Shown in pieces: positions 18,440 to 57,381 of a DNA stretch of 64,000 nt. Below the pieces are notes generated by a model, which searched no databases, was not told the origin of the DNA, and worked only from the letters and a program-made list of their open reading frames with translations. Positions within the stretch are counted from its first letter, which is position 1, and each line of letters opens with the position of its first letter. The DNA lies in IMG/VR virus record IMGVR_UViG_3300021168_000001, positions 1-64,000 of that record; one strand, written 5' to 3'. The DNA comes from a virus. Made by a program: the position numbers and the translations under genes.

Positions 18440-21109
18440 TCAAAATGCAACCGCTTGCCACGTGATTATGTCGCCGCTCACCGTAGTGCCAGCGATCGCG
18501 CAGGCCGTCGTGCTCGTGGTGGTCTGCACCATGTTGTTCGCGTCGGCTGCGGTAGTAAGGTCGGTTGCCGAGCACCGCCAACCATTCGGGGCGGTAAGAC
18601 CCGGTGTGATGGTCACAGTGCAGGTACCCGTCGTTCCGCTGGCGAACGATCCACCGGATGATCCTCCGACCGCCGCCGTCAGAGAGCACCCCGAGACGTT
18701 CTGCGACCCGCCCGCCACGATGTAGTTCGGCGTGACTTTGGTGGCTGTGACTTGGGGAGTGACGACCGCAGGCGTAAGCGCTTGCGTCGCTGGAAGAGTA
18801 GGGGCGCCAGTCAGCCCGTTGCCGGATGGATTGCTGCTGCGGTAGGTGTCGATGAACGCTGTCACGGCCGCAGGAGACGGAAAGACCGTGGACCCAAGGT
18901 GCGTGCCACCGGCAATCGTGGTAGCGGTGCAGGTCGGCCCTACCGCCGTGCAGAAGTTGGTCGTATCCGTAGGCGGGATAACGGTGTCGGAGCTGCCAAC
19001 GTACATCGAAATGGGGACCTTGGACGCGGTAAATACGGCTGTGTTCAGCGTCGGGTCATATGGCGCGAAGGCCGATGCGGGTCCAGCATATGCGGCTTGC
19101 ACTACCTTGTTCGGCGTGTAGGCGGTTCCAGCGGCGTAGGCTCCCGGCCAGATGTAGAGCGGGTCGTAATAGCCTAGCGCGGGCGCATTGAAGTAGCCAT
19201 TGATGGGTTGCCACGTGGTCGGGCTCGATGCTGGCGTCTGGCCTGTGCCGGGGAAGATGTTCACATAGGAAGGCCCGTAGGCCGCGTTGATGACCGTCGT
19301 CAGGCCAGCCTGATAACCTGCGCCGTCCGTCCATGCGCCGGTGAGGTTAACAGCGCCAGAAATGCACATAATCCCCGCAGATCCCTTATTGGCCATTTCA
19401 TAGCCCAAAGCGTTGAGGCATCCCATGGACATGCCAAAGTGGTACAGTTGCCACGTCGCGGGCAGCAATCTCCTGATCGTTCCAATCTGGTTATCTCTAT
19501 AGACCATTCCCGCAGGGTTGTTCCAGTTGCTTGAGGTCGGCCCTGAGTAATTATTCGCCCCCGACCCATCTCCGGTCATGACAGCCAGCAAGCAATTATC
19601 GGCCAAGACTGCAGAGTAGATCGTGTTGGCATTCACATATCCGAGCGCGGCCGGCGTCGCGTTCGCGTGCCAGATATTGAACAGGCATGTCTTGTTGCTC
19701 GATCCGTAGGTTCCCGGCACGGCGATTGCCGCTTCTTGAGACTGTGCGCTCGGCCCAGGCGTGTCGTTCAGGATCTTGGGCGCGAGCGACATAGGCGGGA
19801 GGAATAAGCCGTCAGTCGGTCCGTGCAACGCTCCGACCGAAGCGTATACGCCGATTACCTTGTTGGTTGCCGAGGTGACCTGGATCCTAACCTTTGAGAG
19901 ATTAGTGAACAGCGGAACCCCGCCGTTGGTGAACGTGGCTGGCTCCTCAAAGGTGTATACGAGGTTGTCGAATGCGGCCTGAAATGCAGGCCCGCTGCCA
20001 AACGTAGGGCCGAAACCTAAAACGTTGGCCGCTACCGGGAATCCGGAGGTCCACACATACTGCCCGTCGCTCTGGATGGTAAACCAGTAGCTCATGGGGT
20101 TGGTGATCCCGCCGCCAAACCCGTATTGGTTGTATTGCGACCCGCTGAACTGCCACCCGCCGCCGATCAGCGCCCCGTTGATGTTGTACTTGATCCCCTT
20201 GTGGAAGTCGTTCCCGGAATCGCTCACGATGACAGTGGCGTTGTTCGTGGTGTCGCCATTCACTTGCGTGAGGAAAGCTACGCGCCAAGGCTGAGCCGGG
20301 TTGATCACCTGCGGGAGATTGATGTCGCATGTCCCCTGCACGCCGTTGGTCGTTGCGACCAGGCCCCCGCCAGAAGCGTTGCTCAGATTCGAAACGGTAT
20401 TACAACTCGCCGTGGTGAGAGACGCGATATACAGGTCGTTCGTCGGCATCACGTAGTGCGTGGCGGGAGTGAGGGAATTATTGGTGATCCCCGAAGCAAT
20501 AGAGGCTATTGCCGCGAAATAATTTGTTCCATCAGACAACACCGTCATCGAAGTTGGAAGCGTAGCCGATCCTGCTGGAAGCGTGAGCGAACCGGATGCG
20601 CCATTGATATTTTGCCCACTCGGCGCAACGGTGACCACCCCGGACCCGTAATTTATGATGTTTATCTGCTGCTTTGCAGCCGGCTGCGATCCACTCGCCA
20701 CCAGCGTGATCGTGAAAGTCCCTGATCCTACCGTTATCGTCTTACACTGGGAAAAATCAGCGGCGACGACTTGGTAAGTCCCGGTCTGCGGATTAATAGC
20801 AGATCCAGCACTGAGTAAGATCGCACCGCTGGACCCGCCTCCAGTTAGGCATGCCCCAGCGGTGACGCCAGTTATCGTTCCGGCATTGCCATCCAATACC
20901 CATCCACCGGGAGTGCACGTATATGGCTTGTTGTTCGTGATGTCAGTGTAAGGCGCGCCATAATTCAGAGCCGTGCAACTCCCACCGCTCGGAGCGCCGG
21001 CGCCGGTACTCCTCGGCCAGTTTATCTGCACCGTTGGGTCGATCTTCGTTTGTCCATGGAGCATCACTGCAAACGCAATCAGACACAACACGCTGACAAT
21101 TCTTTTCAT
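18440..21109 (-). CDS. signal-peptide-bearing fibre/spike-like protein with an alpha/beta-hydrolase domain
   Basis: MKRIVSVLCLIAFAVMLHG-Q signal; G/T/S-rich beta regions; GMSMG, GSSDT, GGTH. Confidence 0.7.
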   Translation of the reverse strand: MKRIVSVLCLIAFAVMLHGQTKIDPTVQINWPRSTGAGAPSGGSCTALNYGAPYTDITNNKPYTCTPGGWVLDGNAGTITGVTAGACLTGGGSSGAILLSAGSAINPQTGTYQVVAADFSQCKTITVGSGTFTITLVASGSQPAAKQQINIINYGSGVVTVAPSGQNINGASGSLTLPAGSATLPTSMTVLSDGTNYFAAIASIASGITNNSLTPATHYVMPTNDLYIASLTTASCNTVSNLSNASGGGLVATTNGVQGTCDINLPQVINPAQPWRVAFLTQVNGDTTNNATVIVSDSGNDFHKGIKYNINGALIGGGWQFSGSQYNQYGFGGGITNPMSYWFTIQSDGQYVWTSGFPVAANVLGFGPTFGSGPAFQAAFDNLVYTFEEPATFTNGGVPLFTNLSKVRIQVTSATNKVIGVYASVGALHGPTDGLFLPPMSLAPKILNDTPGPSAQSQEAAIAVPGTYGSSNKTCLFNIWHANATPAALGYVNANTIYSAVLADNCLLAVMTGDGSGANNYSGPTSSNWNNPAGMVYRDNQIGTIRRLLPATWQLYHFGMSMGCLNALGYEMANKGSAGIMCISGAVNLTGAWTDGAGYQAGLTTVINAAYGPSYVNIFPGTGQTPASSPTTWQPINGYFNAPALGYYDPLYIWPGAYAAGTAYTPNKVVQAAYAGPASAFAPYDPTLNTAVFTASKVPISMYVGSSDTVIPPTDTTNFCTAVGPTCTATTIAGGTHLGSTVFPSPAAVTAFIDTYRSSNPSGNGLTGAPTLPATQALTPAVVTPQVTATKVTPNYIVAGGSQNVSGCSLTAAVGGSSGGSFASGTTGTCTVTITPGLTAPNGWRCSATDLTTAADANNMVQTTTSTTACAIAGTTVSGDIITWQAVAF

Positions 21110-21121
21110 TTTCCAAATCTC

Positions 21122-21517
21122 CTAGGAATGCAGGTAAACAGCAAAGACGGCTGCATCGGTCGCCACCGATGGTGAGAACGTTATAGTCTGTCCAGATATC
21201 GTGAAGTCTATTCCCGGTCTCTGAACGATTCCATTTACGGAAAGTATGAACATCAAAGCATTGGATTGAGATAGCGTATACGTAGTTCCAGGCACCGTCG
21301 CAGTCGGTTGCTCTGACACAGTCCCCGCTATGAGCGCTGCATTTATCAAGGACGAGGCATTTCCAGCGGTAAGCAGCGTTACGCTCAACGCAGGCACTGT
21401 AATGCTGCCTCCGAAAATCAGGTCCAACAGTCCCAGATCGAAATTCAGCGGAACCTGCCAGTTAGCCTGATTGAAGTCGGGGATCTGCAACCCGATATTG
21501 GGAGTCTGTGTTGGCAT
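21122..21517 (-). CDS. tail fibre adaptor-like protein
   Basis: TPNIGLQIP..W..LN..LD fibre-type N-terminus plus C-terminal NG..Q..G.DF module. Confidence 0.65.
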   Translation of the reverse strand: MPTQTPNIGLQIPDFNQANWQVPLNFDLGLLDLIFGGSITVPALSVTLLTAGNASSLINAALIAGTVSEQPTATVPGTTYTLSQSNALMFILSVNGIVQRPGIDFTISGQTITFSPSVATDAAVFAVYLHS

Positions 21518-21519
21518 CT

Positions 21520-22092
21520 TTAGCTCACCGTCATGGGCCCGAGGGGATGAAGTTTAAGGTCGGCCAGAGCCTTGAACTTTTGCATACTCGTGGCATTTGG
21601 AGTTGGATCTACCGTTCCGGGACTCAACACATACGATGGGAAGGCTACAGTCCTTCCACCCGTACCGTCCTGCGTGAACGCCAGTGTGATCTCCTGTCCA
21701 AAAGAAAAGCCAAAGATCCCGATCGCCGTTATATTTCCAGTCATCGATGGCACATGAAATCCATCGGCCACGGTCGCACTGAAAGATATGGATGGAGTGA
21801 ACGCGATGTTCTGCATGGGAGTGCGAAGGTCGGCTTGCGTAAGGATGTTGTTCAAAACGCTCGCGAGCGTACCCACGTTCACATCTGAAGTGCTGTATCC
21901 CTTGTTCTTCAGCATCAATGCGAATGCCGTTACAAACGCGTTCGCCTGCCTATATATTTTATTGAGCCACGCTGATGGAAGGATGTTGTTTGTCTGTATT
22001 CCTCCCGTTGTCAACGCATTCGAATCGTAAGTAGCATCGCTCTGCTGATTCGATTGAGTCGGGTTGAACTCCACAAAATTTGTTGTCGGCAT
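21520..22092 (-). CDS. short proximal tail fibre protein
   Basis: TNF..F, SAWLNKIYRQ baseplate-anchor-like motif; TQDGTGGRTV; follows the baseplate genes. Confidence 0.7.
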   Translation of the reverse strand: MPTTNFVEFNPTQSNQQSDATYDSNALTTGGIQTNNILPSAWLNKIYRQANAFVTAFALMLKNKGYSTSDVNVGTLASVLNNILTQADLRTPMQNIAFTPSISFSATVADGFHVPSMTGNITAIGIFGFSFGQEITLAFTQDGTGGRTVAFPSYVLSPGTVDPTPNATSMQKFKALADLKLHPLGPMTVS

Positions 22093-22105
22093 TTTCTTTC
22101 CTCAC

Positions 22106-22744
22106 CTATGCTGCGTGGCCCAGATCGGCGCCAGCGATGAAAGCGTTGTCGAGGTCAGCACCAAATATCGGCAGCACTGGATACAGGTAGGTGTAGAGAA
22201 CACCCTCTGGACGTGGAACGATCATGTCGTTGTTAATCATGTCTTGGATTATTGATGTGAAACTTCCGCTCAAAATGATGATCGCGGTCATGTCCTGCTG
22301 GTCAGCAATGATGATCTGACCGCCAGGGAATAGCGTCTGCCATATTCCATACAGGCTATCGATTGTTCCATCCCATTGGTTCTGAGCGATCTTGGACTTT
22401 ATGTAAATCCGGTACGTCGCATCATTCAGCACCGGGCTAACGCCCCCACTCGGCTGAAATGGAACTGTTCTCGAGGCTCCGGCGATCGCACCGAGCTGAT
22501 CGAGTTGCGCCCCGACAGCATCGTCGATGTCGATCGCCGTATCCAATTTGACAAGCACGCGACTGACATCGTCCAACTTAACGAGGATCGCATAGAGCAA
22601 TGCATTCAGCTTTGGCGATCTGCGGTATTGAGATGTGAGAAGCGCGATGTAGTAACCGAGGGGAAGATTCTCGATCGGCTGATTGCCATATCGCCCCAGC
22701 CCATATCCGCTTGTTCCATAGTGTGGATTTGGAATTGAGCTCAA
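22106..22744 (-). CDS. baseplate wedge protein (DUF2612-like)
   Basis: SQY..SP, DIDDAVGAQLD..G, LND..YR..I, WDGT, PRPEGV. Confidence 0.85.
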   Translation of the reverse strand: MSSIPNPHYGTSGYGLGRYGNQPIENLPLGYYIALLTSQYRRSPKLNALLYAILVKLDDVSRVLVKLDTAIDIDDAVGAQLDQLGAIAGASRTVPFQPSGGVSPVLNDATYRIYIKSKIAQNQWDGTIDSLYGIWQTLFPGGQIIIADQQDMTAIIILSGSFTSIIQDMINNDMIVPRPEGVLYTYLYPVLPIFGADLDNAFIAGADLGHAA

Positions 22745-24213
22745 AATTGCACCACCACCACATCCGCAGTTAGACCCTGTGCGGCGGAATAGAAATGAGG
22801 CATTGCAACGTCGTTTATCGGCGGTGTCGTCCCCGTGAAGAACACGGCATCATTTACGCCGGTGTTCTGATTGGCGACATTCGACATTGTGAGTGTGCTT
22901 CCTGAAATGCCAATTATCGTCGTACCTGGTGGGAACGGTGAAATGCCGTTGCCACCGTTAGACGGTGGCTGAGAACCGTAAAACGTCTGTCCTATCGATG
23001 GTGACGGTCCAAATTCCAGTGGCCCAAATACAGCCAAGTTGGATCCATTCGTGGCCGATAGTCCTCCGACCGTAAATTGCACCGTGCTTACAAACAAGAA
23101 TTGCACGCCGAATCTCGGCGCGGTCTGCTGCGCATTCAGCGCCATGATCGCGTAAATCAGAGCTCCGACAGATACCAGTTCTCCGATTTGCAAACTGTTC
23201 AAATAGGCCACAATCGCAGCCTGGATCGCAGTCAAAGTGGCAGTCGGAAGATTACTCGTATATCCAGTCACCACTGCATACACGAAGATAGGCGTATACG
23301 TCGGCCGATAGAAGCTCATGGTCTCGATGTTCCCTGTCACCGGGTCCGTTACAGATACGCTCGTTGTTCCATGCGTCAGGCATCCTATCGTCTTCTTCAA
23401 GTAGATTGCCAAACCAACGGCTGCATCGGCCCCGCCATCGGCGACGATCGAAATAGAATGAGCCGGATTCCCCCACGAGTCCGTCGCTCCTGTGGGATTC
23501 TCGATCGACGATCCAGGACCTCCGGGAGTCGGCAGAGGAGGAGCTACCCTGACTACTCCCGGCACTGCCAGAACAGCAGCTACCGTCGACGCAAGCGGCG
23601 TCAGCGCGGGCAGGGCAACCGAAATAGCCTGACGTCCACGCAATTCAGAATCGGTTTCAACCGGGTTACCAGCCCTAGCCGCCGCCGCATTGGTCACTGA
23701 AGTCCACCCAAGAACAGTCGACGATATGATCGCAATTTGCCCAGCCGAAGCAGGAACGGATCCTGGAGTCGTGCAGGTCGCGGTCACGTTGATAGTCCCG
23801 CCGCCCGGGATCACAGTCGGCGACGGAAGGGCCCACAGATTTCCGTTCGTGTCCTGCGCGAATCCATTTGTGATGGTTGTGCCAGCGACGCCGCCCACCG
23901 TCAGAACCGCAGTCGAAAATGTGTACGCCATCCTCGCCAAACCGTTCATCTTCACTACGCGGTCGAGGCCGGCACCAACAGCCGTCTGCGGCGAGCTCTG
24001 GTTGTAAGCAAATTGGACGGCCAGGTTCACATCCGAAATCTTCAGCGCGAAAATTGACAGCAATTGATAGATTGCCGAATCCGGAGCGACATACTGATTT
24101 TGCCCATAGATGTTCAAGAAAGAACTGAGTAGATCCTGGAAAATCGACTGGTACGTAGGAATTGTCAGCCCAGCGGGACCGATTGAAGGAGGTGCATAGG
24201 GCGGCGCGCTCAT
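22741..24213 (-). CDS. baseplate J-like protein
   Basis: P.TAVGAGLD, ETDSELR.R, ENPTG..D, HSI..V..GG, F.RP. Confidence 0.9.
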   Translation of the reverse strand: MSAPPYAPPSIGPAGLTIPTYQSIFQDLLSSFLNIYGQNQYVAPDSAIYQLLSIFALKISDVNLAVQFAYNQSSPQTAVGAGLDRVVKMNGLARMAYTFSTAVLTVGGVAGTTITNGFAQDTNGNLWALPSPTVIPGGGTINVTATCTTPGSVPASAGQIAIISSTVLGWTSVTNAAAARAGNPVETDSELRGRQAISVALPALTPLASTVAAVLAVPGVVRVAPPLPTPGGPGSSIENPTGATDSWGNPAHSISIVADGGADAAVGLAIYLKKTIGCLTHGTTSVSVTDPVTGNIETMSFYRPTYTPIFVYAVVTGYTSNLPTATLTAIQAAIVAYLNSLQIGELVSVGALIYAIMALNAQQTAPRFGVQFLFVSTVQFTVGGLSATNGSNLAVFGPLEFGPSPSIGQTFYGSQPPSNGGNGISPFPPGTTIIGISGSTLTMSNVANQNTGVNDAVFFTGTTPPINDVAMPHFYSAAQGLTADVVVVQF

Positions 24214-24228
24214 TGTTCTATGATCTCC

Positions 24229-24618
24229 TTATCCCAACGAAGCATTGATGCCGGGAACATTTGATACTGTCACCTGTCCGAATACTGTCTGCACAGTGCA
24301 TGTGAAAGTGAAAGCTCCTCCATTGAACGACGCATTCAGATCGACAATCGCTGTCACAAGCGGAGCCAGGCTTTCTATCTGTTGCTGCACCAACAGCTGC
24401 ATCGCCTGCAGCGATCGCTGTGTTTCCAACTGCCCGAGCATCGATTGAAAAACTGGCAAACCCAACGTCAGGTTTTCCCACCATTCGCCATAGAACAGAT
24501 TCAATCTTGTGAGGATCGCTTGCGCTACAGCATAGGTGTCGACAAGTGAGGACTGCGAATCGAATATCGGATCATAGCTCAAATCGAGAGCAATATAAGA
24601 AATCGTGGGGCTCGCCAT
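24229..24618 (-). CDS. baseplate wedge/sheath initiator (gp25-like)
   Basis: AVAQAILTRL.LFYGEWW...GLP, TVFG. Confidence 0.8.
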   Translation of the reverse strand: MASPTISYIALDLSYDPIFDSQSSLVDTYAVAQAILTRLNLFYGEWWENLTLGLPVFQSMLGQLETQRSLQAMQLLVQQQIESLAPLVTAIVDLNASFNGGAFTFTCTVQTVFGQVTVSNVPGINASLG

Positions 24619-24622
24619 CGGC

Positions 24623-27556: not shown

Positions 27557-27563
27557 AGCTCCC

Positions 27564-30536: not shown

Positions 30537-30549
30537 TGAATCCTCGGGT

Positions 30550-32436: not shown

Positions 32437-33060
32437 CTAGCTTGAAATGGTTACGTCGGCTTGTTCGCCGTCCTTGTCGTACACCTTCACCTCGACGCTG
32501 GTAACGATGCCATCGTTGATGGTTTCGGCAATCTGTTCATACATCTCAACGTGGAAGTCGGCACGGTCCCACCACTGGGCATTGCGCTCCTCTTTCATCC
32601 TGGTCGGCTCCGGAGCGTCGGGTACTGGAAACAGATTCTGCAGCGCCAGTTGATCGCTAAAGTAGTCGACGAATAAAACAGCAGTATTTACCATCCGCGC
32701 GCGATCGATGCAGTTCGGCCCATAAAACGTCCAAGCGATCTCCCAGGCTCTGGTGTACAACCAGTTCTCAGTGAGGATCTTGACAGGAGGAGATCCGGAT
32801 GTGCTCTGCGTCAACTGTCTATCGCGTACCTGCGAATATGGATTGTGATGAGTCGTGCACTTCAAATAACAGATGTCGGCCTCGATGTCCTGAAATGGCT
32901 GCCCCTCTTCAGGCCAATCTAGTCGCACCATGAATGGATTATCTGGAACAATTCCCAGCATTCCGCACGTCAACGACTGCATCAATTTATCGATTGCATT
33001 TTGCGTCAGCGCCGAACTTATCAGTTGCTGCCCACTCGGGTATTTAGCTGTCGTTGTCAT
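32437..33060 (-). CDS. neck/tail terminator protein
   Basis: VR..W...GQP, TFYGPN, E...QWW.R.D; position upstream of the sheath. Confidence 0.75.
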   Translation of the reverse strand: MTTTAKYPSGQQLISSALTQNAIDKLMQSLTCGMLGIVPDNPFMVRLDWPEEGQPFQDIEADICYLKCTTHHNPYSQVRDRQLTQSTSGSPPVKILTENWLYTRAWEIAWTFYGPNCIDRARMVNTAVLFVDYFSDQLALQNLFPVPDAPEPTRMKEERNAQWWDRADFHVEMYEQIAETINDGIVTSVEVKVYDKDGEQADVTISS

Positions 33061-33647
33061 GTCGCATTCATCCGCGTGCCGATAGCTTTGAAGTATCCAC
33101 TTCCCGGATAGTGCTTTACTGCCAGCACGCGATACTGTTCGCCCTTCGGTGGGTACACAATGATGTCAGCTGCATTGATTCCAACTTGCTGAATCGCCGG
33201 CCACGTCACATATAAGGGATCTTTGGCCGTAAACATCAAAGTTACCGTCTGACCGCTGATCGTGTAATCAACTCCTGGCTCTTGTAGAAGACCGTCGTAA
33301 AACAAATTGATATTTCCATTCGGAGGAAGCGACGAAAGGACAAACACACTACCGGGTAGCGTTCCTTCCGGAACCTCTCCATGCGTCGTCAGCACCGGTG
33401 CTTTGCCACGTGTCGTGAATATCGGTTGCGTAGCCCAGAATGCAAACAGTTGCGACAGGCGGTCGGCTTCAGGAACCATTTGCGCGTCGAGATCCGTCGC
33501 CGGCTGCACTGGCCCCACATCTGGAATCTCTATCTTCTGATCCGTGAAACCTCCAGCCACAAATTCAGCCTGGATCGATCGAAGAATAGTGAATGGCTGC
33601 GGCGCCTGTAAGTCTACGTCCGCTACGACTTCAGATACGTCGATCAT
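33057..33647 (-). CDS. head closure protein with inserted beta module
   Basis: IDVSEVV.D.D, VQPA...D...VPE.DR, D.I.Y....YRV....Y...GY. Confidence 0.7.
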   Translation of the reverse strand: MIDVSEVVADVDLQAPQPFTILRSIQAEFVAGGFTDQKIEIPDVGPVQPATDLDAQMVPEADRLSQLFAFWATQPIFTTRGKAPVLTTHGEVPEGTLPGSVFVLSSLPPNGNINLFYDGLLQEPGVDYTISGQTVTLMFTAKDPLYVTWPAIQQVGINAADIIVYPPKGEQYRVLAVKHYPGSGYFKAIGTRMNAT

Positions 33648-34189: not shown

Positions 34190-34840
34190 TCACATCACGA
34201 ATAGCATCCCTATTCTTCGTGCCCACTCTGTCTCATCACGATCATACTTTTCAAGGTTGTGACGCCGACAAAGTAACTGCAAGTTCCAGATTCCGTCTGA
34301 CCCGCCCTTGGATAAGGGCGTTACATGGTCGATGTGGTACTTGTTCTTTCCCTTTGAAGCTATTTTGTAGATACATCCAGGAACCGCGCACTTATGCTTC
34401 TGTCGCTCCCACAACGCCTCGACCTCGGCAACGGTATGGTGCTCATCCGACCCAGCTTTACGTGCACGCCTGATCCGCGCATTGAGCTTGTGCTGCTCTC
34501 TATTCTCATTTCTCCATCGACGTTGCTTATCGAGCCGGGCCTGATGGTCTCGTTCGTAGCGATGCTTGGCGTTTTCAGATAGCCTCTCGCGGTTGGCTTG
34601 GTTCCAGGCACTCTGGCGGCGAGTAATCGATTCCCTGTTTCTCTTTGCTCGATCTTTCGCTTGTGCAGCAATCGTCGCGGCGTTCCTACGGCGATATTCC
34701 TTGTCACTTTCTGACTTGCGCGCTTTGTTCTCTTTTCTCCACGCGCGCTGATATTCGAGATTCTTCTCGCGATTAAGCACGTACCAGTCATGGTACTTTT
34801 CGGCACGCGTTCTCTTGTCGGATAGAATTCGCTCAGGCAT
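34190..34840 (-). CDS. HNH homing endonuclease
   Basis: Basic N-terminal repeats, RRARK, Q..KC..C, HIDHVTPLSKGG...NLQLLC..HN..K. Confidence 0.88.
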   Translation of the reverse strand: MPERILSDKRTRAEKYHDWYVLNREKNLEYQRAWRKENKARKSESDKEYRRRNAATIAAQAKDRAKRNRESITRRQSAWNQANRERLSENAKHRYERDHQARLDKQRRWRNENREQHKLNARIRRARKAGSDEHHTVAEVEALWERQKHKCAVPGCIYKIASKGKNKYHIDHVTPLSKGGSDGIWNLQLLCRRHNLEKYDRDETEWARRIGMLFVM

Positions 34841-35667: not shown

Positions 35668-35961
35668 TCAAACTCTCACCCATTTTCCGTTCTGAACAAA
35701 CCCATGGTCTGCGCAGTGACAAAGGAACGACGGCACCAGCGTCGGCGCTTCTGGTGTTCCGCTCAACTGCCACACATGGTGCATAGTTCCACAGGCTTCG
35801 TTATAGCGATTATCCGTCCAGAAACTTCCGGCGCATAATCCCGTTTCACTCGTTGATCTCGTGTGGTGAATGATGCCGCCGCATCGCTGACCCTGGAACT
35901 CAGTCCATCGAATCCAGTGACCATCTCCGAGATCGACATCGAAACGTTCCGGAATCACCAT
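35668..35961 (-). CDS. small Zn-binding protein (DUF6527-like)
   Basis: W...G....PTL.PS...C..HG.V.NG.W. Confidence 0.65.
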   Translation of the reverse strand: MVIPERFDVDLGDGHWIRWTEFQGQRCGGIIHHTRSTSETGLCAGSFWTDNRYNEACGTMHHVWQLSGTPEAPTLVPSFLCHCADHGFVQNGKWVRV

Positions 35962-36938
35962 ATGAGCGCGGGCCCCGATCCGATCACTCGCGCCATGTCC
36001 GCCAACTGCTGGCCATAGATAGTCAAATTGAACTGGCCCCAGTCCTCTAATGCGACAAGAGGCGTGAAGCTCTCACTGACATCACCGACGCTCTTCGAAA
36101 CCTGAATACCATTGGCGATGCCCTGTGCGGCGAGCTGCGCGGCATTCGGATATCCAGTGCTCTGCACTGCGATCTGCGTTGTCCAGGTAGCGCGTAACTT
36201 GTCGCCTGTTTGAACAGTGGTCGCCATCGTTATGGTGGCGCCGTTTAGCACATAGTCTGCGCCGACACCGGGCGTCTGGAATGCGCCATTCCAAAACAGG
36301 TCAATGATTCCTCCAGGTGGAATCATACTCAGCATGAAGACTGTTGCCGGCAGGCCTCCTGTCGGAACCGGTACCTCACCATGCAGCGCGGCCTGAAGGA
36401 TCGTCGTTACTTTTGAGGCTGACTTCGCGAACAGCGTGCAATAGTGCGCCACAAACCATGAGATCGCGATAAACCAGGCATCCTGCCATCGTGCCTGCAC
36501 CAGCGAAGCAACCGCGAGGTTGATGTAGATCTGGATCACTGTCGTTGGTATCGGCGGCGTCTCGTAGACCGTCAGCGGAATGTTCGACTGCGTGGCTGTG
36601 GCCTGATTTGAAACGGTTATCTGGTTATTGCCGATTGCCGTGATCACTGTGCCCTTCGGCAGCCCAGCAGCCTGCAAAAACTGATTGATGGATAGGCCTG
36701 ATGTGCTCGGCACGGTGACCGTCTGCGATCCGTTCGTGGTCCCGGCTCCTGGAACCAGCGTAGGAGCTCCGAAAAAGTTCGGATATATGCTCAGAAAGTC
36801 ATCGAGGTAGTAAGGCGGATTCTGTCCGAATACGAAGTTTATTGCGACTGGGAACCCTGGCGTCCCGCCCACTTCCCAACTCCATCCCCAACACTCATTG
36901 ACGAATTGGTTGAAGTCGGGCCATCGCATAGTTCCCAT
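35955..36938 (-). CDS. head-tail adaptor (DUF4054-like) with two inserted domains
   Basis: DF...YP.F, RW, W.......FVAHY, SKSVGDVS.S, WG..N.T.YGQQ. Confidence 0.8.
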   Translation of the reverse strand: MGTMRWPDFNQFVNECWGWSWEVGGTPGFPVAINFVFGQNPPYYLDDFLSIYPNFFGAPTLVPGAGTTNGSQTVTVPSTSGLSINQFLQAAGLPKGTVITAIGNNQITVSNQATATQSNIPLTVYETPPIPTTVIQIYINLAVASLVQARWQDAWFIAISWFVAHYCTLFAKSASKVTTILQAALHGEVPVPTGGLPATVFMLSMIPPGGIIDLFWNGAFQTPGVGADYVLNGATITMATTVQTGDKLRATWTTQIAVQSTGYPNAAQLAAQGIANGIQVSKSVGDVSESFTPLVALEDWGQFNLTIYGQQLADMARVIGSGPALIW

Positions 36939-37403: not shown

Positions 37404-38066
37404 TTAGATTGTCAGCTTATTGCACTTCCGGCTGTTCTCCGACCCCGTCAATATCTGTAGGTTCCAGGGAACATGCAGGCCGCACACCACATCGCTCTTC
37501 AGCGGGACGATGTGGTCGACATGATGTTCAATGCCGGTTGCTTGCGTCCTGCTCCGGGCCTCGCGATAAAACCCGGCAATCTTTTGTTCGAGCTCTTTCG
37601 AAAGCCACGGCGGAGTCGCATTGAGCTTCGCACTTCGACGCCTGGCATTCTTAGCGTTCATAACTTCCGGGTGATCCCGGTACCACTGTCGGCTGCGTTC
37701 GGCCCATACACCTTTATTGCGCTGATATTGCTGGGACGACATTGCTGCCACTTTACTGCGATTCTTGTCGTACCACTTACGAATGGATCGTTTGTTCGGC
37801 AGCGGATTCTTGGCATAATTTCTGCGTTGCCGCGCTAGAATTTGTATCTTTTCTTCTGCGCTCAGTGAATCGTAATAAGTTTTGCAGTGCCTCCTCGCGA
37901 CCTCTGGTTTTCTCTTTTTGTACTTTCCAGCTGCGATCCGGAGGCATTCATTACAGCTATTATTTGAAACCTGACGTTCTGAAATATGGCCATATGGGCA
38001 GGGCTTGCCAGTGAAATACCGCTTCAGCCCTGCCTCTACAGCCTGTTTACGAGATACGATTTTCAC
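37404..38066 (-). CDS. HNH homing endonuclease
   Basis: RYFTGKPC..GH..ER, ATP.W, HVDHIVPL....VCGLHVPWNLQ....N..K.N. Confidence 0.9.
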   Translation of the reverse strand: MKIVSRKQAVEAGLKRYFTGKPCPYGHISERQVSNNSCNECLRIAAGKYKKRKPEVARRHCKTYYDSLSAEEKIQILARQRRNYAKNPLPNKRSIRKWYDKNRSKVAAMSSQQYQRNKGVWAERSRQWYRDHPEVMNAKNARRRSAKLNATPPWLSKELEQKIAGFYREARSRTQATGIEHHVDHIVPLKSDVVCGLHVPWNLQILTGSENSRKCNKLTI

Positions 38067-47200: not shown

Positions 47201-48001
47201 TTACTGTTGAACAAAAGTTAGAACGCCGTTGATGCCGCCTGTTCCGGTCGACAGCACGCAGAGTGCATTTCCAGCTGGAGTCGCGAACCTGCTTCCCTCG
47301 CCGCTCAGTCCCAGCACTGCGCCCGTCGCCGGTGCGAATGCGCCTGTCAATACCGTTGTCCCTGTCCCGCAGGTGGTGCCAGTTCCATATTCGAATTGGG
47401 CGGTCGTTGTAGCACCAACGCTGGCAGTAAATCCGCAGGCATAGACTACTTTGCCGGCGCTCAGTGCCACTAGCTGTGTGGTCGTAGCCGTGCTGATCGC
47501 GACTGACACACTGGACTTTGTTACCGATGGATTCTCGCATGGATCACCAATATTGGCCAGAATCATTGACGCCGATGGACTGAACGTTATGTTCAACAAT
47601 CCGGCAGTCGGGTAGGTGCTCGAGCAAGCATAGGTGGCCACATACTGATCGCCCGTGCTGACCCCGGGAAACACCTGAAAGCTCTGTACACCGGTCGACG
47701 GCGTAAAGCTCACGGTCGCTACAGTTGATCCTGCCGTATTCACATTGTTTGACTGATAAGCTAGCGTGACGGTGCAGCCGCTCGGCGATCCGGTGATTCC
47801 AGATTCAACAATCGTCAGCGTGCCCACGCCAGAAAAGTTCGGCAACCGCGATGCAGGGCTGGTCTGCGTGGCCGTGGCGGATACTGCCGTAAACAGGCTC
47901 ACCCCGGACTGAGATGTATAGGTGGTCTGGGCGATTGACGGAATGACAGCTGCCGCAAGCAGAGCCAGGATCGAAGTAATAACCGAAAACTTGAGTTTCA
48001 T
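47201..48001 (-). CDS. signal-peptide-bearing Ser/Thr/Cys-rich beta protein
   Basis: MKLKFSVITSILALLAAAVIPSIA-Q; six Cys. Confidence 0.75.
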   Translation of the reverse strand: MKLKFSVITSILALLAAAVIPSIAQTTYTSQSGVSLFTAVSATATQTSPASRLPNFSGVGTLTIVESGITGSPSGCTVTLAYQSNNVNTAGSTVATVSFTPSTGVQSFQVFPGVSTGDQYVATYACSSTYPTAGLLNITFSPSASMILANIGDPCENPSVTKSSVSVAISTATTTQLVALSAGKVVYACGFTASVGATTTAQFEYGTGTTCGTGTTVLTGAFAPATGAVLGLSGEGSRFATPAGNALCVLSTGTGGINGVLTFVQQ

Positions 48002-50624: not shown

Positions 50625-51914
50625 ATGCAATCCCTCTTTACCAACGCTGAAGCAATCCGCCGAGCTCGATCTGCCTTTGAGATTCTGTCGAAGGCTGGCA
50701 TCCGCAAGAATGTGGCCGTGGCCATGCTTGTGATGCGGAATAATCTCACCTACGACCAGGCTCGCGATCGAATCGCGTCCCTCGAAACGGCCACAGGAAG
50801 GATGCTTACGGAATGACTACCGATATCGAAGTTTGTTGCTGCGATGCAATGCTTCGTCGCCAACGCGATAACAACAATATGCTTGGCGGTTCTCTTTTCA
50901 GTTGGACCTGCCCGGTTCACAAAAAGGTTTCGATGGATACGCGTCCGTTGCCGCCATCGACTATCCATCATCACCCAGCGGCACCATTTCCGAGACCGTT
51001 CCCGCAAAGGAAGATGGTCGACGGTTTCTAATCCGGCGCATACTGTTGAAAAGGAGGTCTAAACCAATGAAGCCATCAACGAATGCCTTGTTCATGGCCC
51101 TCATTCGCCATGAGAACTCAACGAAGGAAGAGAAACAGGCTGAATGCCAACGGATTTGCCGAGAGGCCGCGCTCCGCGGTTTGCATTCAGTCCTGTGCCC
51201 AGTCCTTCACGACCAGTGGAAGCAGACGCCACAAAGAATCCGAAAGGCCGCATGACCGGAGACGATATGGTTCGTGAAGTCTTTTCGGTGGTTAGCGGCT
51301 GCAACCTCGATGTCCTGCATGCCACCTTCGGCGCTGATTTCCTGTTTTGTAATCGACCTTTCGTGCTCATCGTCGAATGTCCTGCGAACCTGCGCGACGT
51401 GATCCGCCAGCACATCGCGCAGTCTCTTCCGAAGCACTGGACCCTTGAGTTCCGATAGCCGGAGTTTGATGCCTGATGCGTACGCCAGTTCACAACAGCG
51501 AAGCTTTGAGGTTACTCGCCCGGTTGAAATACCGCATGGAAGGCTTTGTTCTTCAAATTAGCCATAGCCCAACCGGATCGTCTCTTTGCCTGCCGCCACG
51601 ATCAGCCGATTCATTAACGATTAGCCGCTGGCTCGACGAATTGGACAAGATCGAAGCCGAGCTCAAAAAGGACTGAAATGAAAGCCGAAGAGATCCAAGA
51701 GATAATCAGCCGCTGCGCCGAGATCTGCAAGGCAGCCAACCCGATCGTTGCGGCCGGTACCATGCAAATCACCAACATCATGATCCAGGGCGAGATTGCC
51801 ATCCGTCTTGGCGAGATAGCAGAACACCTCGGCGATATTTCCAATCGCCTGGACAACATATGTAATCCGAACAATGGCGATTCGCTGAATGTTACGACAT
51901 TTTCCCCGATCTAG
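50625..51914 (+). other. counter-oriented cassette of six small ORFs (50625-50816, 50813-51031, 51067-51255, 51252-51458, 51476-51676, 51678-51914)
   Basis: RBSs (AAAGGA, AGGAGG), ATGA overlaps, TATAAT at 50586-50591. Confidence 0.65.
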
Positions 51915-52528
51915 GGCAAGCTCTTGTAGCCGATCCCGCTGAACTCCACACTATAGGCGCCGGCAACCGATGCAATGCACAGCTGCAGCTGCGTCACAAT
52001 TGTGTTCGGAGCCCATCCGTGATTCTGTGCCGGGATCGCCGGCATCGCGATAGGCTTGCCATTCGCGCTGGCGAACCTGATGTTTTTGTTCACATAATCG
52101 AATCCATACCGAATTGCTACACCGTTCTCGATGTCAATCTCCAGCGGAATCGGTACGCCTGTGTTGACCCAAGGATTGTTGATCTGCGTCATCCACCCGT
52201 TGGCAACATTGAACTGAAAACTTCCATCGTAGGTGAATCCAGATGCGTCGGTGAACTTGCTGTCCATCTCGATGACCTGCGCATACTGGATGTCGTCGCC
52301 GAACTTTACCGTACAGCCGAACTCGACACTCGCCGAAGGGTTGAGCCACTGGCTCGTGCATTTCCCCAATGCGCCTGAATCGGGCTGACCATCGCAAACG
52401 ATCACCAGGCCGCTTGCAGTTTTCTCTACCGCAAAGCCGGTCGGCTGCTTCGGGTTGATTGTCGGGTCCCACTCTGGCGTCCACAGTCCATCACGTTCCA
52501 GATTAGTAATCTGCCAGGAATAACTCAC
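51911..52528 (-). CDS. hypothetical beta-rich protein
   Basis: GGAGG RBS, GTGA overlap with the HNH stop; 205 aa. Confidence 0.65.
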   Translation of the reverse strand: MSYSWQITNLERDGLWTPEWDPTINPKQPTGFAVEKTASGLVIVCDGQPDSGALGKCTSQWLNPSASVEFGCTVKFGDDIQYAQVIEMDSKFTDASGFTYDGSFQFNVANGWMTQINNPWVNTGVPIPLEIDIENGVAIRYGFDYVNKNIRFASANGKPIAMPAIPAQNHGWAPNTIVTQLQLCIASVAGAYSVEFSGIGYKSLP

Positions 52529-53200
52529 TCCATCCTCCGATAAAGAACGCCTCGTTCAATCTCCCAATACCGGTTTCCCTTGCGAGAATTGCACGGTTTA
52601 CACGCGCCGACGACGTTCGCCCTTGTATGCTGTCCTTCCTTGGAAAGAGGCACAACATGGTCCATGGTCAATTCACACTCAATTCCGCACCACCAACAGC
52701 AACTACGCTGTTCAGCGATAATCGCAATCCACTGGCAGGGAGTTAAATCCCCTCTCCGTGAAGCAGCCCTCCTTTTGTGTCCACGGCTTCTGTTGATTGC
52801 CTTGTAAAGATCAGGCTTTTTCGCCATCGATCGCCTGACATAAACCTTGCATTTTTCCTTATTGTCCCTCGCCCACCTTACGGCGCGGGCGATTGCGATA
52901 GCGGCCTCTTTACGATAGCTCAATTTTTTGCTGCATCTTGTCGAGCAAGTCCGAGCTTCAGGATGGAAAGTGGAAGGTACGAATACATTGCCGCAAATCT
53001 CGCAATTCTTGGCAGAATGCTCTTGGTAGCCTATTTTCTTTCGATTCCATGATCTTTTCAGGCAATTTTTGCTGCAATATGTTTTTCTTGGACATTTCTG
53101 CGGTACCTCGAAATTGACATCGCAGGCCGCGCATTTACGCGTTCTGGATTTGGTCCCAGATCTTTTCAATTCCTCCGCTTGCAAGCTGCCGGACTTCATC
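52525..53200 (-). CDS. HNH homing endonuclease
   Basis: Two C..C..F...CS..C repeats; CWWCG..TMDHVVPLS..G.H...N...C..CN..KG; start uncertain, overlaps the endolysin 3' end. Confidence 0.88.
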
Positions 53201-53641
53201 GTTAGGCTCCGCCACCGGGAACTGACCATTCATCTGAAAATGATCATAATCCTTGAAGTGTTCCCATAGGGCACCGCATTGCAATCCAAGCGAAGAAGCT
53301 ACAGTAACCATCCGAATGTAGGAACTGGTTAGACTCTTTCCACCGTTACTTTCTACTGCTTTCCAGTCTGGCTGCCATGGATCTAATCCGATCACACCTG
53401 GTACTAAATCCACGGCGAGGCCGAAATTGTGCCAAGAAAATCCGCCACGTACATTTGTGACGATGGACCCTGGTGCGGTCCGGCCCTTCGCGTAGAGCTC
53501 ATCCTGTTCGGCCACCGTGCGAAGGCCAGCAGTCACACGAATGTAGATGTCCTCGGCAGCAAGCATCGAGGCCATCTGACGAACCTTGTCCGCGAGGCCC
53601 GGGTAGAGATCCGCGAGCCTCGCTTCGGAAACTTCATCCAT
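53135..53641 (-). CDS. endolysin, peptidase M15 family (L-Ala-D-Glu peptidase-like)
   Basis: GLRT..EQ..LYAKGRT.PG.IVTN..GG.SWHNFGLAVD, D..HFQ. Confidence 0.92.
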   Translation of the reverse strand: MDEVSEARLADLYPGLADKVRQMASMLAAEDIYIRVTAGLRTVAEQDELYAKGRTAPGSIVTNVRGGFSWHNFGLAVDLVPGVIGLDPWQPDWKAVESNGGKSLTSSYIRMVTVASSLGLQCGALWEHFKDYDHFQMNGQFPVAEPNDEVRQLASGGIEKIWDQIQNA

Positions 53642-53988
53642 TACCGCCTCTTCCCTGGAATTCTTCCCACCGGCGATTCGTGAATCAGGCGCTTGCCTTG
53701 CGGCGGTGAGACGTTTCCTTCTATGCCCATGAAGTTCGGCAGCTTCCTTGCTGGACTATCAGGAGCCTTGTCGCCAATTGACGACTTAAATTCCGAATGC
53801 CGCTCCACGAGTTCTGGATCACAAACGTGCGGATGCCATTCGGTATTTGGATAAATGGGCCCCTCGGGATAGCTGAATGCTGTGCCTCCCCATTCGTTCC
53901 CCATTTTGCAGATGGTTGCGCCGCAATTCTCGCAGCTATGCGGACCATAGTAGACGATTCGCGAACTTCTGAATGTGATTGGTGACAT
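53641..53988 (-). CDS. hypothetical Zn-binding protein
   Basis: AAGGAG RBS; CENCG, H.C. Confidence 0.6.
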   Translation of the reverse strand: MSPITFRSSRIVYYGPHSCENCGATICKMGNEWGGTAFSYPEGPIYPNTEWHPHVCDPELVERHSEFKSSIGDKAPDSPARKLPNFMGIEGNVSPPQGKRLIHESPVGRIPGKRR

Positions 53989-54017
53989 TTTGTTTTCTCC
54001 TTACGTAAGTAGGTATT

Positions 54018-54326
54018 TCATTGTCCGCTTCGCTTTCGATAGTTTTCGATCTCGGCGAGGCAGATCTTCATTCCCACCTCATCCTCGAGGCAGGAGTGGA
54101 TCCGGATATTCGGCGTCGGCCGCCCATCGAGAGACTGCTTCCATCGCAGCCATTGCTCAGCGTCCATATGCGTCTCGACGATCTCGATATCGTAAAAGTT
54201 GTTTTGGAATTTAGCCTGTTGGTGACGAATGTCTATCACTCCAACGTGGCTCAAATCCATTATGCGAATGATCGATCTTGCCGGGCACTCGCATGTCACC
54301 AGGAGCACGCGCGGCTTGGCGCTCAC
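54018..54326 (-). CDS. hypothetical protein
   Basis: 102-aa ORF within the operon. Confidence 0.5.
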   Translation of the reverse strand: MSAKPRVLLVTCECPARSIIRIMDLSHVGVIDIRHQQAKFQNNFYDIEIVETHMDAEQWLRWKQSLDGRPTPNIRIHSCLEDEVGMKICLAEIENYRKRSGQ

Positions 54327-54420
54327 AGTTGCCGCGCTCTCCTTCGCCGGATCCAGTTCTGGCCGCAGAACGGTGGATACCAGATGGTCACCATTTTCTT
54401 AATCATCTTGCTCGCTCCCC

Positions 54421-57381
54421 TCAGTTCGGAATCCCGTAATTATAGGTGCTCGTGTCTCCCGTCGCGCATATCACAGAAAATCCCACGCCGGGATTAGGTG
54501 TGGTCTGCGCCAGCGCGCCAGGCGTTCCGCCGACCGTCTTTATGCCGAACCATACGGTAGACGTCGCTGAGAAGTTACCATTTGTAACTCCGATCGTTCC
54601 ACCGCTGGTGCAGGTAAATGTTCCCACACGAGACGATGAAAGCGGCACAGTTGTGAATGGCTGGCGCGGTGTTATCCCATTGCTAAGAATATCAAGGCAG
54701 TCGGATACCGAGCCGTTACCACACTGGATCTCTACCCCATTAGCTTGTGCATTAATGCGGCCATTTAGAAGCTGAGCTGATGTATGGTATAGGTCGATAT
54801 GCGGATCAGTACTAGAACCCGGTAGCGATAGCCCTTGCGGAAAGGGTATCTGCGCCGTAAAGGCTGGATTTTCCTGAGGCTGTGAATTTGAAGCGTTGTC
54901 CTGCAGGGCATCATGATATCGGGTGCATACAGGGTCGCCTTGATTAAAGATCGACCAAATTATTCTATTCACGGTCCCACCGCTCCAGCCGATGATATCC
55001 AGAGTGGGTACACGCGGACCACAAAATATATCGCTACTTTTCACAGCGCCTTCTAACTGCGTCGCATTTCTATAAGGATCGTTGGTCCCAGTAATCGGTG
55101 TCGCACCCTCCGCTGATAGCGTGTGCATTGTTAAAGATCCTGCAACACAGCAGAATATGTTTCTACTGATCCCTTTAGCTAGTATCGTATCTATGGTCCC
55201 GCCTCCGGTCTCGCCGGAATCACGAGCAAAGATTCCCAGACCCAAAGAGCTGACTCCGGGGTAAGTGTGAGTGTTGGCGCCCTGCGGGATATTCATGGGA
55301 TGCCCTGTTTGCCGCTGGCTTATAGTTGCAGGGAACTTAGCTATCTCAAGAAAATCTGGGCTATTCCCGGAGCAGCCGGAACACCAAAAATACTTGTCAA
55401 ACCAATCATCCAACTTCTGTGAACCGCTTCCGGGTCCTCCATACGCCGGTAAACGTGGAATGATGTTGCGAGCACTAGTCGCATCAAAGAATCCGCCGCA
55501 TCCCAGGGGTTGATCGATGCGATGGCACCACTGCCCGCCGTTGATCCAGCTACCAAGGCTATTGAATACAAGATCAGAAGCAGTAAATCCTATATCCGTA
55601 GACTGGGTCCACATCCCCAGTCCACCATTAAATGTAATGCCTCCGATGTGGGAATAATTCGCATTGTTGATTACTCCGATGTCAAGAATGGCGTTACTAG
55701 CCGTGAAATACTGAAGATCTAGACCCACCACATAGCCACCGTAAATCCACGGTTGCAAGTTATCAAAGGTCTGGCCATCCCAAGTGCCAATGTCGGAAGT
55801 GGCGTTTCCCAATGTAGAGGATTCACCAACAAAGCTAACTTCCGATCCAAGGTAAACATTGACGGGGAATTGAGTCGGTGCGAGCGGAGTCATGTTGCTG
55901 CACTGCACCCATACCGGACTACCGGCTGTGTTACTGTTGCAGGCTCCGTGGTCACCGAAGACAATGGTAGGTGCCGTTACTCCGCAACCCGTAGCGTTGG
56001 TGCCGATCGTCATCGATGTGATTTGCCCGGCAGCGTTCGATGCCGCTGTTCCTTTGGCGACGATCGGCACCCAGCCGGTGCCGATAAACCCGATGGTATT
56101 GCAAGTGCTGCTGCCTTTAACCGCATAAAAATTAATGGCTGACCCAGAGCTTGGCACGTATCCCGAGCCGCCAGCACCGACGCTTGGCGTTGTAATCGCC
56201 CCGCCTGATGTCGTCGTGGTAGCGGTCGCGCCGTCTCCTCCGACAGTTACTATGGTCGCAGTTGGCGGAGATGAGTAGTTGTATCCGCCAAAGACCACGG
56301 AGCACGACGCAATATGACCACCGCTGTCGCTCGTGGCTGTAATGTAAGCCTGATTTCCGCACTGAGCGCTGCCGTTGCATCCCCCGGTGACAATGGTGCG
56401 CATCGTTGAATTGATGGTGTAACCAGAGCCGGAAGATGTCACAGCGCAAGACGAAATTACGCCATTTGTACCTAGTGTAGTTGATAGTGTTCCTCCGGTC
56501 CCTCCTCCTGCCTGGCCATAGCCGCCATCATCAGAGGCACCAGTGAGAACGTAATAAGGAGCCGTCGCCATCAAATACTGCCCCGGTGGCTTTATGCATA
56601 TGCCACCGGTCGCCGGAGAAACAAACGTTGCCTGCGCACATGCAGCGAATGCTGGGGAGTTATCCGTGCCGTACCAGAGATTGCCAGTGAAAGAGTTGAG
56701 GGCGGTTTTGTTCAGGACGACGTGAGTAGCATCTGTGACCGACACTATTTGCGCCGTGTTGTTCGTGGTCCATCCTGAAAGCGGAGTAAATGCTATATTC
56801 GCGAATGGCTGCGCGGTTGGAGCACCGATTGTTGCGAATTTCCCGATGTCTGTTAAGCCGCTGAAGTTCGTGTTGGTGCATGTGAGCGTAGTTCCCCCCA
56901 CGGTCATAGAGCACGTGAAGTAACCCGACGCGCTCCGCTGAAGCGCGTCGCCAACCGCTCCATAGGCGGTGACCAGCTGGGTGGCCTTGCATGCGTTGGC
57001 ACTACAGGCTTGATGGACCGTAGGGAGGTCGCTCCCCAGGTTAAGTTGATGAGTCGATGGGTTGATCGTGATGCTGGGATCGCCCTGGAACGAAGTCACC
57101 GCATTGTTGGCGAAGTTCACGGCAAACGCTGGCCCGGCAGGATTAGATGCTGTACCTCCATTCGAAGTCCATCCAGAACTCGAACAGAAATAGCTCAGAT
57201 TGTTCGTAGTATCCGCATATGGCTCACCATAATTTACTGATGTGCAAGGTATCGTCGGCGCACCGCTACCACTCACCTTGACCCACTTTACCTGTGTGTG
57301 CGGATTGATGGCCTGCTGGCCTACGCCATCAATCCACGAATTCCAACACACCAACAGGATCAGTATTAACGCTCGACGCAT
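54421..57381 (-). CDS. large signal-peptide-bearing, Cys-rich fibre/spike-like protein with pectin-lyase-like beta-helix start
   Basis: MRRALILILLVCW.. signal; AYGAVGD..GTDNSPAF..PPG.Y; G.GY..P repeats. Confidence 0.72.
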   Translation of the reverse strand: MRRALILILLVCWNSWIDGVGQQAINPHTQVKWVKVSGSGAPTIPCTSVNYGEPYADTTNNLSYFCSSSGWTSNGGTASNPAGPAFAVNFANNAVTSFQGDPSITINPSTHQLNLGSDLPTVHQACSANACKATQLVTAYGAVGDALQRSASGYFTCSMTVGGTTLTCTNTNFSGLTDIGKFATIGAPTAQPFANIAFTPLSGWTTNNTAQIVSVTDATHVVLNKTALNSFTGNLWYGTDNSPAFAACAQATFVSPATGGICIKPPGQYLMATAPYYVLTGASDDGGYGQAGGGTGGTLSTTLGTNGVISSCAVTSSGSGYTINSTMRTIVTGGCNGSAQCGNQAYITATSDSGGHIASCSVVFGGYNYSSPPTATIVTVGGDGATATTTTSGGAITTPSVGAGGSGYVPSSGSAINFYAVKGSSTCNTIGFIGTGWVPIVAKGTAASNAAGQITSMTIGTNATGCGVTAPTIVFGDHGACNSNTAGSPVWVQCSNMTPLAPTQFPVNVYLGSEVSFVGESSTLGNATSDIGTWDGQTFDNLQPWIYGGYVVGLDLQYFTASNAILDIGVINNANYSHIGGITFNGGLGMWTQSTDIGFTASDLVFNSLGSWINGGQWCHRIDQPLGCGGFFDATSARNIIPRLPAYGGPGSGSQKLDDWFDKYFWCSGCSGNSPDFLEIAKFPATISQRQTGHPMNIPQGANTHTYPGVSSLGLGIFARDSGETGGGTIDTILAKGISRNIFCCVAGSLTMHTLSAEGATPITGTNDPYRNATQLEGAVKSSDIFCGPRVPTLDIIGWSGGTVNRIIWSIFNQGDPVCTRYHDALQDNASNSQPQENPAFTAQIPFPQGLSLPGSSTDPHIDLYHTSAQLLNGRINAQANGVEIQCGNGSVSDCLDILSNGITPRQPFTTVPLSSSRVGTFTCTSGGTIGVTNGNFSATSTVWFGIKTVGGTPGALAQTTPNPGVGFSVICATGDTSTYNYGIPN

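Follow-up and report, generated by a model that had tools for sequence, protein, structure and literature searches.

The first 64,000 nucleotides of the virus record IMGVR_UViG_3300021168_000001 (hereafter the window; the record is a complete virus genome of 103,269 bp with direct terminal repeats) encode two large fibre-like proteins, P0001 and P0002, each of which begins with a Sec-type leader followed by a shared segment of about 55 amino acids, the N-module. Searches with this segment point to a large family, apparently confined to phages, in which a Sec-type leader is coupled to fibre-type proteins encoded in the receptor-binding slot. Tailed-phage virions assemble in the cytoplasm, and their fibres normally lack signal peptides. 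The best overall explanation of the findings below, which we advance tentatively, is that P0001 and P0002 are exported and dock onto the virion through the N-module after permeabilisation of the inner membrane.

The two proteins and their parts, named here as far as sequence and fold comparison allow (a slash marks the predicted cleavage site), are as follows.

18440-21109, minus strand: P0001, 889 amino acids; leader, N-module, a widespread domain of about 100 residues, an alpha/beta-hydrolase body and a Cys-rich C-terminal beta region.
21053-21109, minus strand: P0001 leader, residues 1-19 (MKR n-region, hydrophobic core, ...HG/Q), with AGGAGA upstream; assigned also from family-wide leader statistics.
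20885-21052, minus strand: P0001 N-module, residues 20-75, with two invariant Cys.
20507-20803, minus strand: P0001 domain of about 100 residues (residues ~103-201), found at ~70% identity in >140 proteins.
18830-19801, minus strand: P0001 alpha/beta-hydrolase-fold region, residues ~437-760, with the motif GMSMG (residues 559-563) and the putative nucleophile Ser561 (codon 19427-19429).
54421-57381, minus strand: P0002, 986 amino acids; leader, N-module, Cys-rich fibre-like body and K1-lyase_C-like tip.
57319-57381, minus strand: P0002 leader, residues 1-21 (MRR..., ...GVG/Q), with GAGGA upstream.
57154-57318, minus strand: P0002 N-module, residues 22-76.
54430-54630, minus strand: P0002 K1-lyase_C-like C-terminal domain, residues 918-984, below the Pfam cut-off.

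Both reading frames, and N-termini exactly as quoted, had been reported in a first-pass annotation made from the sequence alone, which also described the proteins as sharing an N-terminus before diverging and as rich in Cys. Comparison of the two by BLASTP aligns residues 1-74 and 1-75 alone (38% identity, E = 1e-13), with no significant similarity in the rest, and the totals of 17 Cys in P0001 and 29 in P0002 agree with the description; one Cys lies in each leader, which leaves the even numbers of 16 and 28 in the mature proteins. The whole phage genome contains exactly two copies of the N-module. The P0001 gene starts at an ATG with AGGAGA 8 nt upstream, 12 nt from the end of the preceding gene, and the P0002 gene at an ATG with GAGGA 10 nt upstream, 18 nt from the end of the preceding gene. 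Because of these Shine-Dalgarno sites and the closeness of the upstream genes, it is very likely that the starts are real and that both genes belong to late operons. The objection that translation might begin downstream, so that the leaders would not be made, is not borne out, as the Shine-Dalgarno sites precede the ATGs that open the hydrophobic leaders.

Leaders were recognised by a crude heuristic (K/R followed by a hydrophobic core) together with conservation across the family, rather than by a trained signal-peptide predictor. The P0001 leader consists of MKR and 13 hydrophobic residues and that of P0002 of MRR and a hydrophobic core, and about 7 of the 165 open reading frames (ORFs) of the phage pass the test. 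Among 139 leaders of the N-module family, which are 14-44 residues long, 135 have K/R and a hydrophobic core. Ala occupies position -1 in 64/139 and position -3 in 61/139, with Gly the next commonest residue at -1; the sites of P0001 (H-G/Q) and P0002 (G-V-G/Q) are weaker than this family norm. At +1, Gln is the commonest residue, filling the first column of the module in 68/139, and 32 more have Ala there, followed by Gln in the examples listed. The predicted mature N-terminus after leader cleavage is QTKIDPTVQINWPR. The leaders themselves are hypervariable and mutually unrelated, such that the property of being a leader is conserved and the sequence is not.

Paired Cys residues accompany the leaders. 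The N-module has two invariant Cys, and six Cys are invariant in the family of the P0002 body at 33-44% identity. The sheath, tape measure, wedge, protease and portal proteins of the phage contain 0-0.9% Cys. P0166, the sole protein related to the P0001 esterase body over nearly its full length, lacks a leader and is poor in Cys. Lysis-type genes lie near both proteins.

17747-18073, minus strand: holin-like protein with multiple transmembrane segments.
17016-17693, minus strand: spanin-like protein with a lipobox (LFAG/C) and a long helical region.
53135-53641, minus strand: endolysin, near P0002 (phrog_15351, E = 2.6e-24).

Since the lipobox protein adjoins the holin-like protein downstream of P0001, the host appears to be diderm, with an outer membrane and hence a periplasm. 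Taken together, the conserved leader property, the preference for Ala at -1 and -3, the invariant Cys, the Cys-poor virion proteins and the lipobox protein make it highly probable that P0001 and P0002 are exported, cleaved and disulfide-bonded in the periplasm. The proposal of export and oxidative folding in the first-pass annotation is thus strongly supported by the conserved leaders, the invariant Cys pair, the even Cys counts and the predicted diderm host.

An unlikely alternative is that the leader is inefficient, masked or bypassed, so that a cytoplasmic pool assembles conventionally on the tail and the exported pool is a by-product or second isoform. In its favour, Met16 of P0001 is in frame and lies four residues ahead of the predicted cleavage site; an internal start there does not generalise, however, as most leaders of the family lack an internal Met near the site, strong Shine-Dalgarno sites stand before the first ATGs, and AxA-type sites and Cys pairs would not be selected across the family if export were incidental. 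It is more doubtful still that the exported proteins are retained on the envelope of the infected cell through the N-module, as a superinfection-exclusion decoy, a receptor-destroying enzyme or a cell-cell adhesin. Their layout of signal peptide, conserved domain, phage-like fibre and variable tip is that of the Bdellovibrio MAT fibres (PMC10769870). Against retention, we detected no outer-membrane anchor, lipobox, autotransporter barrel, type IX secretion system C-terminal domain or PEP-CTERM signal in P0001 or P0002 (Pfam at E<=0.01, with the C-termini inspected by eye), the only Pfam match at this threshold being K1-lyase_C in P0002; the genes occupy late operons, and a virulent phage would gain little by decorating a cell that is soon lysed.

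To define the family, a profile of the mature 56-residue segment was searched against 1.84 billion cluster representatives, which identified 355 protein clusters at E<=1e-3, of which 133 reached E<=1e-10, with lengths from 71 to 6840 amino acids. In the 151 best matches, the median start of the module is residue 22, and 91% of the starts fall within residues 15-40. Neither a word-based homologue search with residues 1-80 nor a single-sequence pattern scan of IMG/VR found anything. Pfam domains over 56 family members comprise GDSL/SGNH esterases, pectate-lyase beta-helices, NosD, DUF2961, CBM_4_9, K1-lyase_C and End_N_terminal (the endosialidase N-terminal extension). Tandem copies of the module core are also found inside some proteins, set between collagen-like G-X-Y runs, and leaderless fibre protein(s) contain a Cys-free variant of it. 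P0029 (6840 amino acids), P0132 and P0112 are giant fibre-like proteins with 5-7 internal Cys-loop cores split by such runs. At the other extreme, an identical 132-residue protein in five contigs (L012-L016; e.g., L014:10001-10399) consists of leader, module and a short tail, perhaps as a minimal module protein or part of a split gene; a 671-residue protein that looks secreted precedes it.

From 30 sequences, AlphaFold2 modelled the module as a small beta-hairpin domain with moderate confidence (pLDDT of 70, and 83 in the core). Foldseek searches with this model gave no match at E<=1e-3; recurrent themes below that threshold were the trimerisation domains of collagen XV/XVIII, the N-termini of CBA120 tailspikes, Mtd, and collagen-like and tail-fibre models, which we treat as weak leads only.

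Behind the module, the two bodies differ. All ten of the ESM Atlas structural neighbours of P0001 residues ~437-760 are alpha/beta hydrolases (template modelling (TM) scores of 0.56-0.59, normalised by query), and P0001 has no Pfam match at E<=0.01. By fold and GxSxG motif, P0001 is a putative glycan-acting serine esterase. The domain of about 100 residues that precedes this body recurs, ~70% identical, in >140 proteins that are otherwise unrelated and mostly look secreted, at varying positions and in up to three tandem copies; this conservation is unusually high for a shuffled domain, and the domain has no Pfam match. The structural neighbours of P0002 are weak "tail fiber" and pectin-lyase types. 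Its C-terminus matches PF24146 (K1-lyase_C) with E = 6.8e-5 and 23.7 bits, below the gathering cut-off of 27, and precomputed tables give K1-lyase_C for P0002, P0273 and P0278. We propose that P0002 resembles a tail fibre and ends in a lectin-like tip. Bodies of the P0002 type occur behind several different post-leader front ends, and a leader is always present where the sequence is complete. Searches of PDB sequences with P0001, P0002 and the profile of the P0002 family returned nothing meaningful.

The genomic context of the module was compared across 17 IMG/VR loci, of which 10 distinct loci were used for neighbour counts. The following genes of the window are those on which the comparison turns.

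21122-21517, minus strand: stub131, leaderless, with a fibre-type N-terminal motif and a C-terminal beta-module, ending 12 nt before P0001 (phrog_18673/2710, tail fibre).
21520-22092, minus strand: unk190, leaderless, matching the N-terminal half of short-fibre-like proteins of 320-350 residues in L007 and L008.
18120-18359, minus strand: 79-residue leaderless beta-module ORF just downstream of P0001.
33057-33647, minus strand: head-type protein carrying a beta-module.
35955-36938, minus strand: virion structural protein carrying a beta-module.
57400-57945, minus strand: secreted-looking protein of 181 residues (...VLA/QDE, 4 Cys), 18 nt upstream of P0002.

P0001 follows the baseplate212, unk190 and stub131 genes, which is the tail-fibre slot, as had been noted for one of the two proteins. 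A module gene occupies this slot in 10 viral contigs. The close relatives L007 and L008 keep the order of tape measure, hub, wedge, baseplate, unk190, stub and a giant with leader and module. On backbones with no other detectable homology, too, no further large gene stands between the module gene and the endolysin and transmembrane or lipoprotein genes. In L003, L005 and L017, the module gene is the last large one ahead of lysis genes. The profile search and these neighbourhoods, both of which the first-pass annotation had proposed as checks, thus yield 355 clusters, 17 loci and a recurrent placement in the fibre slot. The fibre identity of the family is supported by this slot in syntenic and unrelated backbones, and by the Pfam bodies, the collagen-like repeats and the weak fold neighbours. 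One contig, L007:10001-19685, has three secreted-looking giants in a row (918, 887 and >1184 residues), of which the middle one has a leader and lacks the N-module.

The beta-module, a segment of about 65 residues of the type ...NG..Q.PG.DY...G..I.F..., is present in four genes of the phage, two of which encode head-module virion proteins. By iterated search, a small leaderless protein ending in a beta-module is encoded directly upstream of the module gene in 5 of the 10 distinct loci (the window, L006, L007, L008 and L019), and a beta-module is found nearby in L003/4 and L005, for a total of 7/10. In L010 and L017, the gene immediately upstream encodes a leaderless protein that matches canonical N-terminal anchors of tail fibres and tailspikes over its first ~135-150 residues. 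From sequence, such modularity is that of receptor-binding proteins and has the appearance of a split fibre.

Under our preferred explanation, a virulent contractile-tailed phage infecting a diderm soil bacterium, probably one of the Acidobacteriota, would encode P0001 and P0002 as trimeric proteins of fibre or spike type that act on glycans. The two proteins would be exported late in infection through Sec, and cleavage by signal peptidase I (SPI) would expose Gln, followed by folding and disulfide formation in the periplasm. The N-module of about 55 residues, stapled by a disulfide, would form a trimerising front end, which would dock onto leaderless beta-module adaptors that the particle already carries in the cytoplasm (stub131 on the baseplate, and possibly others), either when holin lesions mix cytoplasm and periplasm inside a still intact outer membrane or just after release. 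The likely benefit would be disulfide-stabilised receptor-binding and depolymerising gear for a harsh extracellular habitat in soil or peat. Docking gains indirect support from the leaderless beta-module gene directly upstream in half of the distinct loci and from the fibre anchors upstream in L010 and L017; it is also supported by the several paralogues per phage that share the module and differ in body, by the occurrence of P0002-type bodies behind different post-leader front ends, and by the position of both genes in late operons. By extension, and with more reserve, we suggest that widespread virulent tailed phages may split host recognition between a cytoplasmic leaderless adaptor and Sec-exported distal parts that are joined at holin lesions.

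Several points weigh against docking. We know of no tailed phage that adds exported parts to its particle. No universal neighbour family was detected at phmmer sensitivity, and the iterated search found no beta-module in L010, L014 or L017, so that there is no universal partner. The P0002 gene lies outside the tail module, with TerL and the small secreted-looking ORF on one side and the endolysin region on the other, and has no adjacent beta-module gene; the small ORF (57400-57945) has a textbook leader and its own Shine-Dalgarno site, GGGAGA. The fold matches of the module fall short of significance, adjacency to tail genes could reflect insertion at the end of the tail operon, and the leaderless short fibre-like proteins of these phages could be the real receptor binders.

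Some of these points fit the main competing explanation, that the proteins are free enzymes, which we consider only slightly less probable than docking. P0001 and P0002 would then be Sec-exported, disulfide-stabilised soluble esterases or depolymerases that are never bound to the virion and in which the N-module only trimerises or binds glycan; their targets would be nascent envelope glycans in the periplasm and/or, after lysis, exopolysaccharide and receptors on debris and neighbouring cells. A signal peptide alone predicts exactly this. The placement of P0002 beside lysis genes and away from tail genes fits as well, as do the leaderless candidates for receptor binding, the small secreted-looking ORFs that accompany these genes, the tandem internal repeats of the module core in some proteins, as is often seen for binding domains, and the ~100-residue domain that P0001 has in common with many secreted proteins lacking the module. 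Conversely, enzymes released by lysis need neither a long fibre architecture nor a conserved module that is strictly N-terminal, and they need no conserved pairing with a leaderless beta-module gene; nor do they account for the same front end on several paralogues per phage, or for a family that is limited to phage contigs and placed in the fibre slot.

The module was absent from 50,697 cultured-phage GenBank records, and none of 185,579 GTDB species genomes matched in a pattern scan. A search of 401 Acidobacteriota genomes with the hidden Markov model of the module gave one marginal partial match. Judging by these comparisons, only phage contigs carry the family, with essentially no occurrence in cellular genomes. 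The complete phage genome contains no detectable integrase or resolvase (tyrosine or serine recombinase), in a search in which positive controls were detected, and the phage is therefore probably virulent. These results speak against the other reading offered by the first-pass annotation, that the proteins are surface or secreted factors of a lysogen. Phages are known to carry secreted morons close to their tail genes (lambda Lom, PMC12309495), and prophages of P. gingivalis encode signal-peptide proteins of unknown function that follow the Q-rule (PMC10367356); with terminal repeats, no integrase or resolvase, and a module that is essentially missing from GTDB and Acidobacteriota genomes, lysogenic conversion from a prophage is extremely improbable.

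The host is likely a member of the Acidobacteriota (Bryobacterales), as suggested by sequence comparison. Within GTDB, the ~100-residue domain of P0001 was found only in a Bryobacteraceae metagenome-assembled genome (MAG) from the SPRUCE peat site, where it lies next to RecT, and in a Solibacteraceae MAG, and one named protein with this domain is from Ca. Sulfotelmatobacter. The Q-rule, Gln at +1 after SPI cleavage, has been described as a feature of Bacteroidetes (PMC5837995), and a Bacteroidota host was considered for this reason; it was rejected in view of the acidobacterial relatives of the domain and of Shine-Dalgarno usage, with Shine-Dalgarno cores before 30-64% of the genes vs. 12% in the background. 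Gln also follows the predicted cleavage site in secreted proteins of the phage that lack the module (window 57400-57945 and 47201-48001; genome 74419-74871), and likewise in L020:2371-4311, in L023-L042 and in proteins of acidobacterial MAGs. In a 400-kb sample of a Solibacteraceae genome, small-x-small/Q occurs in 7 of 22 leaders, vs. 0-3 for each of N, E, D, T and K. The Q-rule may thus extend to Bryobacterales, with the caveat of a small sample and a crude predictor. The host link is useful, since we know of no cultured phage for Acidobacteriota.

PHROG annotation identifies the phage as contractile-tailed, with TerL, a portal fusion, protease, major capsid, sheath, tube and tape measure proteins, as well as a hub, gp25-like and gp6-like wedge proteins and a baseplate protein. 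In two studies of soil, metatranscriptome contigs are 100% identical to parts of P0001 and the downstream lysis genes (window 17000-21000), which is weak evidence of P0001 expression in soil, as carry-over of DNA is possible; the lack of matches at 21020-23000 does not imply silence. Elsewhere in the genome, ten consecutive histidines (…KHHHHHHHHHHYEE…) occur naturally in a 439-residue protein with no PHROG match (window 15737-17056), the structural and lysis modules are interrupted by three genes of the HNH/endonuclease VII type (34190-34840, 37404-38066 and 52525-53229), and an 86-residue ORF outside the window (genome 96313-96573) opens with a twin-arginine-like leader (MNRRQFLIS...).

If P0001 and P0002 do join the particle, they would represent a new assembly route, a two-compartment pathway unknown for Caudoviricetes, and would explain how phages of harsh soils acquire disulfide-hardened adsorption gear; if they stay free, they would mean that phages deliberately export depolymerases and esterases of a new class. 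Under either reading, virome annotation filters that drop proteins with signal peptides would miss such receptor-binding proteins. The predicted mature tryptic N-terminus of P0001 is a concrete peptide to seek in metaproteomes of virus particles.

In our search of the literature, no account of tailed phages with signal peptides on their tail fibres came to light. Filamentous phages have a receptor-binding protein, g3p, with a Sec signal peptide and periplasmic disulfides; inoviruses, unlike tailed phages, which assemble in the cytoplasm, assemble at the membrane. That fibres are expected to lack signal peptides has been stated, e.g., for the targets of phage diversity-generating retroelements (PMC6199706). 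Comparison with the tailspike and fibre depolymerases of tailed phages (K1F endosialidase, CBA120 TSP1-4 and Klebsiella phage tailspikes with N-terminal anchor domains, PMC12692247) shows the same fibre slot after the baseplate and the same use of a conserved N-terminal front end on paralogues with different bodies (esterases, beta-helix glycanases, lectin-like tips), whereas the known depolymerases have no leader and few Cys and are assembled cytoplasmically, and the module family has a Sec-type leader and paired Cys. Like signal-anchor-release (SAR) and signal-peptide endolysins, lambda Lom and the Q-rule proteins of P. gingivalis prophages (PMC10367356), P0001 and P0002 would use host Sec and SPI before lysis and have Gln after the cleavage site; unlike those small proteins of lysis or conversion, they are large, fibre-like and encoded by a probably virulent phage. 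The module bears a weak fold resemblance to the trimerisation knobs of collagen XV/XVIII and phage fibres and to the N-terminal domain of Mtd (TM score ~0.5; Foldseek probability up to 1.0 in BFVD, without a significant E-value), from which it is set apart by the predicted disulfide staple and by its strict placement immediately behind the leader. The MAT fibres of Bdellovibrio bacteriovorus combine a signal peptide, a conserved beta-rich domain, a phage-like trimeric fibre and variable tips in the same way (Caulton et al. 2024, PMC10769870), but they are chromosomally encoded in a predatory bacterium and their conserved domain has ~130 residues, whereas the genes described here are phage-encoded, the module has about 55 residues, and no sequence relation between the two was seen.

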